A stretch of DNA of 64,000 nt from Alphaproteobacteria bacterium (GCA_964291285.2 OZ219786.1:864001-928000), one strand, 5' to 3'; positions 11,878 through 14,146 are shown, counted from the first letter of the stretch. Notes: generated by a model not told the origin, from the sequence alone. Numbers and translations: made by a program.

Positions 11878-12831
11878 GGGTGAAGCACCTTTCGGTTGTC
11901 CGGGGCGGAGGGAGTCGAGTTTGCGGCCCCGGGGGCGGAGGGCCAAGCGCGATGTGTCATGTGGATGTCATGGAATGTCATGTTCTGTCATGCGGGCCTG
12001 TCTCCGCCCCGGCCGTTTGCAAGGCATTGCAGCCTCCTTGTCGGTCTGCGGTCCCGGATGCCCCGTTGCCGGAGGAGCGCTCCTCCCGCGCGCATAATGC
12101 GCGTCCGGCCGCGCGTGCGCGCACGTGTGCGCGAAGCGGCGGGGCCGTCCCCTCCACCGTGGATGTCATGTTGTGTCATGGAGGCACGCCGCGGGACCTT
12201 CCTCCCGAGACGCCATCCCGATCCTCTTCCCATCGTGCCCGGACTTGTTCCGGGCATCTCTCCCTGGACCGTTGCAGCGGCGGAAGTGGCAAGTCCGGGC
12301 ATGACGAATGGGAGACGGGGCGGGCCATCCTTCGATACGCGGCCGGCGCCGCTGCTCAGGATGAGGGGAGGGGCCCGCTCCACGGGAATGTCACGAAATG
12401 TCATGATCTGCATGCGCGCGGCGCATATCCTGTGGTCGTTTCAGACATGAGACCACCGTTTGTCTCCCCGCCTCGCCTGCGAGGGAAGGCCGGGGCGGGA
12501 GGCCCTCTCTCGATCCGGCACGGCCTTGCCGGAACGCGCGGCCGCCGGGCCTTCTTTCGGCCCCCTCCGCAGGCGGGAGAGGCGCTTGTGTGGCGGCAGG
12601 CCATCCTGTCGAAGCCGTATTCGCCTGCATCCCGCACATCGTTCCTTCATCCCGTTTCGTTCCCTTTCATTCCCCTCTCCCCGCCGCCGGCCTGCCCGGC
12701 AAGCGGGACCCTGATTCGCGCGTATCGCGCGGGCGCGGGCGGGTGTCGGCGCCGGCGCGGTTCGCGCACCTGATTGCGCCTGCGCCTGCCCGCGCATAAG
12801 GCCGGACGCAGGGCGCACCTTGTATCTCTCC

Positions 12832-12994
12832 GGATCGTTGTTGCAGCTATAGTCGCAACAGCGGGAGCGGACGGGAGACCGCTAGCACCCAGGTTATGAA
12901 GACCGCGGGAGAGCATGGTTCCCCGTCCGCTGTTCCTTTGAACCCGAACAGTCGCTTGGTCCGCAGTGTGAGACCGCATTTGCAAGGACGGGAC
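12832..12994 (+). ncRNA. Predicted IS110 bridge RNA
   Basis: 5' hairpin plus two stem/internal-loop domains. ACAGTCGCT (12948-12956) equals the element right end; GCACC and GGAGAG match the flanking target. RNA ends are approximate. Confidence 0.75.
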
Positions 12995-13927
12995 ATGGAA
13001 CGGATATTCGTTGGCATCGACGTGGCGAAGGATCGTCTGGACGTGCATCTGCGCCCGTCCGGGGAGGCCTTTGCCGTCGCGCGCGACGGCAAAGGCCTGG
13101 AAGAGTTGTCGGCGCGCCTGGGCGGGCTGGAGGTTGCCCTCGTGGTGCTGGAGGCGACGGGCGGCTTCGAGGTCACGGTCGCGGCGGCGCTCTGCGCGGC
13201 GGGCCTGCCATTGGCGGTGGTCAACCCGCGCCAGATCCGGGACTTCGCCCGCGCCACCGGCCGGCTCGCCAAGACCGACGCCCTCGATGCGGCGGCGATC
13301 GCACAGTTCGCCGAGGCGGTCCATCCCGAGCCCCGTCCGGTGCCTGACGAGCAGGCCCGCGCGCTCGCCGAGCTGGTCGCCCGGCGGCGCCAGATCGTCG
13401 CGATGATGACCGCGGAGAGAAACCGCAGGAGGCGCCTCACAAGCCGTCGCACGATCCGCAGCGTCGACCGCGTGCTCGCCACCCTGCAACGCGAACTCTC
13501 CGACCTCGAAACCGAGCTCGGCGATGCGATCCGCAAATCCCCCGCATGGCGCCAGGCCGAGGACCTCCTCAAAAGCGTTCCCGGGGTCGGTGACGCCACC
13601 GCACGAACCCTGATCGCCGATCTCCCCGAACTCGGAACCCTCAGCCGAAGGCGCATCGCCGCGCTCGTCGGCGTCGCGCCCTTCAACCGCGACAGCGGAA
13701 CCATGCGCGGAAAGAGAACCATATGGGGAGGACGCGCCAACGTCCGCGCAACCCTCTACATGGCTGCCCTCACCGCCTCCAGGCATAACCCAACCCTCAA
13801 ACGCTTCTATCGCCACCTGATCGCGGAGGGAAAAACCAAAAAGGCTGCCCTCACCGCCGTCACACGAAAGCTCCTCACAATCCTCAACGCTATCCTCAGA
13901 GACCGAACCCCGTGGAAAACAGCTTGA
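12995..13927 (+). CDS. IS110 transposase/bridge recombinase
   Basis: GIDVAK, EATGG, KTDALDA (DEDD), SVPGVG and DSG (catalytic Ser) motifs. Confidence 0.96.
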
Positions 13928-14146
13928 CCGACAACACAGTCGCTCTCCTGTCGGCTCCCAAAGGTATTTTTCGCGTCGGCGCCAACGCGAAAGACGAAGC
14001 GGCCTCCGGATACCGCTTCGTCCGATTCAATATAACATATGATTTAGATATGTCAATTCATTTTGAGATTTATTGCCAATAATTCGAACAAATGCGTTTG
14101 CCGATCCCGCCGTTGCACGAACGGCCCATACAGACCGAATCCTGGC

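Follow-up and report, generated by a model that had tools for sequence, protein, structure and literature searches.

In the 64,000-nucleotide stretch of alphaproteobacterial DNA analysed here (the window), it is highly likely that positions 12821-13942 hold an intact, recently active IS110-group element whose movement is guided by a bridge RNA in the manner described for IS621. With a length of 1122 bp, the element lies on the plus strand between two CT dinucleotides (12819-12820 and 13943-13944), and is complete; from its sequence, it is very probably active and appears to encode an IS621-type bridge RNA. An earlier sequence-only reading of this DNA had proposed an IS621-type architecture, and that proposal is upheld by the protein, the ends, a two-loop RNA with compensatory stems, covarying guides and split-promoter motifs. 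The element is new but of a known kind, and the supplementary lists of orthologues and ISfinder elements of PMC11208160 may include its clade. Its sole notable departure from the IS621 pattern is a 4 + 2 + 5 split of the target combined with a floating register of the left guide.

Ends, layout and genomic copies

The left end opens with TGTATC at 12821 and the right end closes with ACAGTCG at 13942. The only inverted bases at the ends are ACA (13936-13938) and TGT (12821-12823), without long terminal inverted repeats. The non-coding ends measure 174 nt on the left (12821-12994) and 15 nt on the right (13928-13942), the last 7 nt of the right end (13936-13942) constituting the left donor arm. 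This arrangement of a long left and a short right end corresponds, by sequence, to the layout of the IS110 group and is the opposite of that of IS1111.

The same genome contains 13 right ends and 12 left ends of the element, and all of these junctions were observed to break at the bases named in the sequence-only reading, whose CT cores and every other coordinate were found to be correct. CT closes the flank at all 12 left junctions, and the right core copy is followed by the right target CTCCT (13943-13949). The boundaries are independently proved by these same-genome junctions, by repeat paralogues with a single CT, and by contigs from two public runs that join 12818 directly to 13943. The duplication formed on insertion is the 2-nt core only, as indicated by the junctions of the 13 copies and by the single CT of both the empty allele and the paralogues. 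The open reading frame is identical in all 13 copies, with no base differences beyond element position 90; the left end is uninterrupted in 9 of the 13, and the copy in the window is identical to 8 other complete copies. No near-identical DNA was found in the plasmid collection searched.

The recombinase

The sole long sense-direction open reading frame of the element (12995-13927) runs from an ATG at 12995 to a TGA at 13925-13927 and encodes a protein of 310 aa. The protein matches Pfam PF01548 (DEDD_Tnp_IS110; 3.4e-24) and PF02371 (4.2e-20), and scores 222.9 bits, above the cut-off of 140, against the NCBIfam equivalog NF033542 ("IS110 family RNA-guided transposase"). Residues 4-307 align to the IS621 transposase (PDB 8wt6; E 1.5e-38), and opposite D11, E60, D102, D105 and S241, described as the composite active site of IS621 (PMC11208158), the protein has D, E, D, D and S. 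It is thus predicted to be a DEDD/Ser recombinase whose N-terminal part is a DEDD RuvC-like domain and whose C-terminal part is a Tnp domain carrying the catalytic serine. Among elements that annotated records name, the ISMno7 family of Methylobacterium nodulans plasmids comes closest; its IS110-like transposase is 62.6% identical over residues 4-308, which by this protein comparison is too distant for the same insertion sequence. The closest unnamed relatives among the matches listed are 93% identical. ISCro4 (PDB 9t56) shows similarity over the full length of the protein (E 2e-38). In one relative (L109:1180-1203), the start-codon region was observed to hold a three-fold tandem repeat whose 9-base unit includes the ATG.

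Insertion site and mobility

The element interrupts a REP-like repeat (12700-12818 and 13945-14030) with about 40 partial copies in the genome, the left flank (12700-12818) belonging to a member of this dispersed family that carries the target site. For the computed empty site, 25 of 109 BLAST hits span the junction, and several of them read GCGCAC-CT-CTCCTG with a single CT. Five of the 13 copies lie within one REP-like repeat family, whereas the other 8 lie outside it and share only a short motif.

Occupancy of the locus was assessed by aligning Logan contigs of public runs to 12700-14060. Contigs of run X1, which may be the sample behind the window assembly, bridge both junctions of the occupied locus. 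One contig each in runs X2 and X3, which carry the same organism label and come from the same study, joins 12818 to 13943 and so skips 1124 bp with the ends CT..CG, that is, the element and one CT. Over 69 + 118 flanking bases these two contigs contain 0 other letters, and they are found at flank depth. Because the paralogous repeats are only 74-84% alike over at least 60 bases (two short hits of 27-28 bases reach 93-96%), the contigs represent the same locus without the element. The locus thus holds the element in X1 and is precisely empty in X2 and X3, a direct sign of recent mobility. The ratio of k-mer depth between element body and right flank was about 13 in X1, 4 in X2 and 11-12 in X3, which serves as a hint only, contig depth not being copy number. 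The earlier description of the element as probably active is supported by the 13 copies with identical reading frames together with the occupied/empty polymorphism at this locus.

Predicted fold of the bridge RNA

Folded as a single sequence, the left end (12821-12998) reaches -73 kcal/mol (z -2.86) and forms, in order, a 5' hairpin (12835-12864), a long stem with an internal loop, and a second module of the same kind. For a consensus, relatives were taken as the best 80 of at least 381 confirmed loci from one protein-similarity scan of genome contigs; both ends could be placed by simple end motifs in 67 of these, and the other 13 were left out, one of their ends being either missing or too close to the contig end. 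The 53 distinct left ends, that of the window included, were aligned and then folded together. Of the 28 pairs predicted in the resulting consensus, 14 have undergone one or more double changes that preserve the pairing. The 5' hairpin is a feature of the single, minimum-free-energy folds and is absent from the consensus because the region aligns poorly.

The target-binding module (12866-12931) consists of an outer stem with compensatory changes (12866-12880/12917-12931), a 5' loop side (12881-12891), an inner hairpin (12892-12904) and a 3' loop side (12905-12916). The donor-binding module (12943-12992) is likewise kept in the consensus, with an outer stem at 12943-12946/12989-12992 and an inner hairpin at 12957-12961/12972-12976. 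The closing strands previously given for the target loop, AGCGGACGGG at 12866-12875 and CCCGTCCGCT at 12922-12931, are both where they were placed, but the stem is longer than they imply and comprises 15 positions. Folding, which had been suggested as a check, agrees with the proposal: the left end is predicted to fold like the IS621 bridge RNA, with a hairpin at its 5' end followed by the target and donor loops.

A search of Rfam 15 returned no bridge-RNA match in the left-end stretch. A minus-strand match to sX15 (28.1 bits against a gathering score of 55) is below threshold and was not taken as evidence; it spans 12853-12967 and tracks the target-loop helices. sX15 is described as a plasmid-borne Xanthomonas sRNA that constitutes a gene's 5' leader, has an antisense RNA as its partner and has 10 Stenotrophomonas homologues (PMC3300014). 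sX15 may in turn be a bridge RNA, encoded by an IS110-type element.

Donor guides

The motif ACAGTCGCT occurs at 12948-12956, as the left donor guide, and at 13936-13944, where it comprises the last 7 bases of the element and CT. The 9/9 match reported earlier is thereby confirmed, these being the only two occurrences on both strands of the 64-kb window against 0.33 expected by chance. Among the relatives, the left donor guide follows the right-end variants (ACAG/ACGG, GTCG/GCCG) in 24 of 25 distinct guide/donor combinations, L084 being the exception. Donor conservation among the 67 parsed relatives is in part a matter of construction and their range of variation is limited, since the end-finding patterns required CT-TG.. 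and AC.G.CGCT and so allowed only set variants. The last base of the left donor guide, which faces the core T, varies among relatives (T, C or A), and the core stays CT. This variability fits an 8-base guide as in IS621, for which A123-C130 is given (PMC11208158).

The predicted right donor guide (12978-12987) is made up of AU (12978-12979), CAAG (12983-12986) and a candidate handshake base, G12987. It matches the discontinuous pattern reported for IS621, A157-U158 and C162-G165 (PMC11208158). The TGCAAG noted in the sequence-only reading at 12981-12986 lies inside this stretch at the position given, and its contiguous pairing through one G-T wobble is an equally possible drawing. In one relative, L081, where the element end is TGTAA, the guide shows the corresponding A-to-U change. 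The claim of an own donor specificity holds only in modest form: C6 and G7 differ from A6 and T7 of IS621, but C8, T9, G11, A13 and T14 are the same (PMC11208158; compared at positions 6-9, 11, 13 and 14).

A conserved CAAGGA, formed by the right donor guide and the handshake base (window 12983-12997), sits 6-7 nt before the ATG. Because it looks like the ribosome-binding site of the recombinase gene, folding of the donor loop or binding of protein could gate translation of the recombinase.

Target guides and target sites

The two guide segments proposed for the target loop, GCACC at 12885-12889 and GGAGAG at 12908-12913, were compared with the flanks of the other genomic copies, a compilation that had been suggested with them. 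The 12 left and 13 right junctions were found to share a [G/A]CAC-C and CTCTCC consensus. On the left, position 4 is G, A or C in 8, 3 and 1 cases, C5 and A6 each occur in 11 of 12, and C7 in all 12, CAC preceding the core CT in 11 flanks. On the right, all 13 flanks read CT-CTCC, the next base being C in 9 of them and T in the other 4. The site consensus for these copies is [G/A]CAC-CT-CTCC[C/T].

On its 3' side the target loop reads G-C-GGGAG-AG-C-A-U, and the reverse complement of GGGAG-AG, CT-CTCCC, equals the right flank. The right target guide was therefore correctly located and correctly matched to the target in the earlier description, although it comprises 7 nt (GGGAG + AG, 12907-12913) rather than 6. 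The effective left target guide, GCAC + CC (12885-12890), covers target positions 4-7 and the core C, with C12890 a mismatch against the core T. CC stands opposite the core in 5 of 44 distinct loops, and CT in 34; C12890 facing the core T is the one real oddity of this target loop.

Guide behaviour was examined in 67 element-target pairs with 44 distinct target loops, a set in which many targets lie in repeats and are not independent, and whose members were picked by protein similarity. Complementarity of the right guide was 0.97, 0.94, 0.99, 0.91 and 0.94 at +1 to +5 and 0.18 at +6/+7, so that in this clade the right guide is 7 nt including the core. It averaged 4.75 of 5 matches compared with 2.24 when elements and targets were cross-paired, and 0 of 5000 element-level permutations reached the observed value. 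A nine-base right guide was considered as a family rule and rejected, given the 0.18 complementarity of relatives at +6/+7 and the fact that 5 sites share one repeat; in the element's own genome the +6 base is G at 10 of 13 sites. Some bridge-recombinase orthologues are reported to have right guides longer than that of IS621 (PMC11208160).

The left guide averaged 4.61 of 7 matches versus 3.49 when cross-paired, again with 0 of 5000 permutations reaching it. Best-register identity at positions 1-7 was 0.25, 0.33, 0.28, 0.76, 0.88, 1.0 and 0.97, and at the core 0.97 and 0.85. The cross-paired control under the same register rule gave 0.45, 0.32, 0.33, 0.36, 0.58, 0.43 and 0.80, and 0.87 and 0.63 at the core; choosing the best register inflates the match rates, as the control values of 0.36-0.80 at positions 4-7 indicate. 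Register 1 was found in 49 pairs, register 0 in 13 and register 2 in 5. When each loop column was compared blind with 26 flank positions, identity was detected only between loop positions 5, 6 and 7 and target positions -4, -3 and -2 (z 4.0, 3.9 and 6.7), and complementarity between 3'-side loop positions 3-7 and +5 to +1; this blind scan gave no signal for left-loop positions 1-4. The covariation across relatives makes secure the 5- and 6-base matches of the target guides, which are short and weak alone.

Against the 12 genomic sites, the left guide matches 4 to 6 of 9 positions, and the perfect nine-base site, CTAGCAC-CT-CTCC, has 0 matches in the genome. The match of 5 of 9 noted for the window copy is accurate, yet it is the norm of the clade and not a defect, because GCAC-C (12885-12889) covers all the positions that the clade uses, namely 4-7 and the core. 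Taken together with the right guide, the sequences suggest that the clade splits its 11-bp target 4 + 2 + 5, as opposed to 7 + 2 + 2 in IS621.

In IS621, guide bases just 3' of the right guides are described as pairing with the other DNA after strand exchange (PMC11208158). By analogy, C12914 and G12987 are inferred to be handshake guides. C12914 comes directly after the AG that ends the right target guide, is the complement of donor G7 and occupies a column (C94) that is invariant in 53 sequences. G12987 comes directly after CAAG and is the complement of target C7, a position that holds C at all 12 sites; L076 instead has A as the equivalent guide base and T at target position 7. Overall, the claim that the guides match the element's own junctions was substantiated, and the guides also covary with the junctions of relatives.

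Proposed junction promoter and mechanism

The -35 half of the proposed junction promoter, TTGACC (13924-13929), overlaps the TGA stop codon, and its -10-like half, TATCTC (12823-12828), lies in the left end. Across the circle junction the spacer amounts to 13 nt of right end, CT and TG, or 17 nt. Among the parsed relatives, a TTGA motif at exactly this spacing from a TATNNN-like hexamer was found in 50 of 50 distinct junctions (TTGACN in 48, TTGATC in 2), and the -10 position reads TAT in 46, with TATCTC in 24. TATCTC lacks the usual final T and is weak as a -10 by the E. coli consensus. The motifs and spacing of the promoter proposed in the sequence-only reading are thus as described. The back-joint 13942 to 12821 is absent from the contigs of X1-X4, which tells nothing either way, contigs dropping rare forms. 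None of the 21 runs listed for this DNA is an RNA run.

By analogy with IS621, excision would link the two ends of the element, right to left, through a single CT, setting TTGACC 17 nt upstream of TATCTC and switching on transcription of a left-end RNA of about 160 nt. Sequence and comparison among relatives show that the donor loop of this predicted RNA has ACAGTCGC(U) and AU..CAAG, which read the joined ends of the element itself, and that its target loop has GCAC-C and GGGAG-AG, which read the site [G/A]CAC-CT-CTCC[C/T]. The RNA-bound 310-aa DEDD/Ser recombinase would then exchange strands at CT, as its conserved residues suggest.

Alternative explanations

Three observations run counter to this RNA-guided mechanism: the missing final T of TATCTC, the C rather than U opposite the core T, and the 4-6 of 9 matches of the left guide. 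In one competing explanation, the element would be mobile and RNA-guided with a largely vestigial left target guide, the site being recognized by the 7-nt right guide and by a protein that reads DNA shape or a nearby hairpin, as reported for ISPpu10. Such an explanation would account for target positions 1-3 being unrelated to the loop (identity of 0.25-0.33, in essence no higher than under cross-pairing, with the blind scan silent), for the register differing among relatives, and for the 5 of 13 copies in one REP-like family. In Reyranella relatives, moreover, the left flank consists of a hairpin in which the stem bases change in pairs, and there is a precedent in ISPpu10 (10.64898/2026.03.19.712850). 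However, positions 4-7 covary with the loop, with the z values given above at -4, -3 and -2, and 8 copies lie outside the repeat family with only a short motif in common; a vestigial guide is considered unlikely. Tentatively, and with doubt, the 4 + 2 + 5 split, the four unused bases at the start of the 11-nt left loop side, the three guide registers and the C opposite the core T in some members, this element among them, may point to a target loop shaped differently from that of the solved IS621 complex, for which protein contacts with a hairpin in the target DNA could compensate. The split would then represent a different loop geometry, or it may simply reflect tolerance at natural sites.

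Two further explanations dispense with guidance or with activity. The repeats of end sequence within the left end could be subterminal protein-binding repeats with no guide RNA, and the left donor guide, as a direct repeat of the right end, would by itself fit this. The right target and right donor guides, though, are complementary and not identical to the DNA, the complement covaries, the stems around the loops stay paired through double changes, and RNA guidance is reported as experimentally demonstrated for the protein's family (PMC11208160, PMC11208158), which leaves protein-binding repeats as a most improbable explanation. Nor is it at all probable that the copy in the window is a defunct remnant, with the empty allele a product of deletion or of assembly through a paralogous repeat. 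The flank is indeed repetitive, and contigs cannot reveal rare variants, but the joining contigs match the flanks without another letter over 69 + 118 bases where paralogues are 74-84% alike, the skip is exactly the element and one CT, and the copy is identical to 8 other complete ones. Recent RNA-guided movement is the preferred explanation.

Comparison with known systems

The closest parallel is IS621 of E. coli (PDB 8wt6; PMC11208160, PMC11208158). According to these sources, it shares the two-domain recombinase with aligned DEDD and Ser residues, a left-end RNA (predicted here) with a 5' hairpin, target loop and donor loop, the CT core, the motifs of a split promoter across the circle junction, donor bases C8, T9, G11, A13 and T14, and the AU...CAAG form of the right donor guide (PMC11208158). 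Insertion into REP-like repeats is also common to both. The IS621 protein is longer, with 326 aa (PMC11208158), and its donor positions 6-7 are AT instead of CG. Its target is ATCAGGC-CT-AC, compared with GCAC-CT-CTCCC here, and its left and right guides have 7 and 2 non-core bases, compared with 4 and 5. The present element further differs in having CC at the core in its left guide and a right end of only 15 nt.

ISPpu10 of Pseudomonas putida is described as an IS110 element with copies in one conserved intergenic repeat that has a stem-loop 5' of the target (10.64898/2026.03.19.712850), whereas only 5 of 13 copies here are in one repeat family. The IS1111 group has the same recombinase family and is reported to use a bridge RNA, but places that RNA in a long right end and has subterminal inverted repeats of 7-17 bp (PMC11208160), unlike the ACA/TGT seen here.

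Taken as a natural bridge recombinase, the element has been caught in the act, with 13 identical-ORF copies and an occupied/empty polymorphism at single-base resolution. From the approximately 44 related target loops, the rules that its guides follow can be deduced at natural sites. Tool builders gain a compact orthologue of 310 aa, with a naturally long right and short left guide, as a candidate to set against IS621 and ISCro4; for genome biology, it is nothing new in kind.

Other insertion sequences and atypical relatives

Four of the 13 copies (C2:1145259-1147405, C2 near 1295741, C3:1703455-1706995 and C3:1142108-1143558) are interrupted by other insertion sequences, all in a 31-bp target-loop stretch equivalent to 12865-12895 of the window. 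Two of these copies carry an IS5-like element at CTAG 12882-12885; the other interrupters are an IS256-like element, which duplicated 9 bp at 12865-12873, and a composite of Transposase_29 and IS1595-like parts at 12891-12895. A target-loop hot spot for other insertion sequences was considered and is partly explained away by the YTAR site preference of IS5-like elements, since 12882 is the only YTAR site of the element; the IS256-like and composite insertions remain a loose cluster.

The genome is very rich in insertion sequences, with at least 44 full IS5-like copies (one in the window, 53744-55722), about 25 IS256-like copies, and about 10 and 15 copies of the two parts of the composite. Most IS5-like, IS256-like and composite copies are 99.9-100% identical, which suggests a recent burst. 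Several copies of the REP-like repeat have an IS5-like element 30-40 bp away. Among the relatives, L072, L095, L099, L105 and L081 have the right end 162-179 nt after the stop codon, compared with 18-30 nt, so that approximately 150 additional nt precede the conserved -35 and donor arm.
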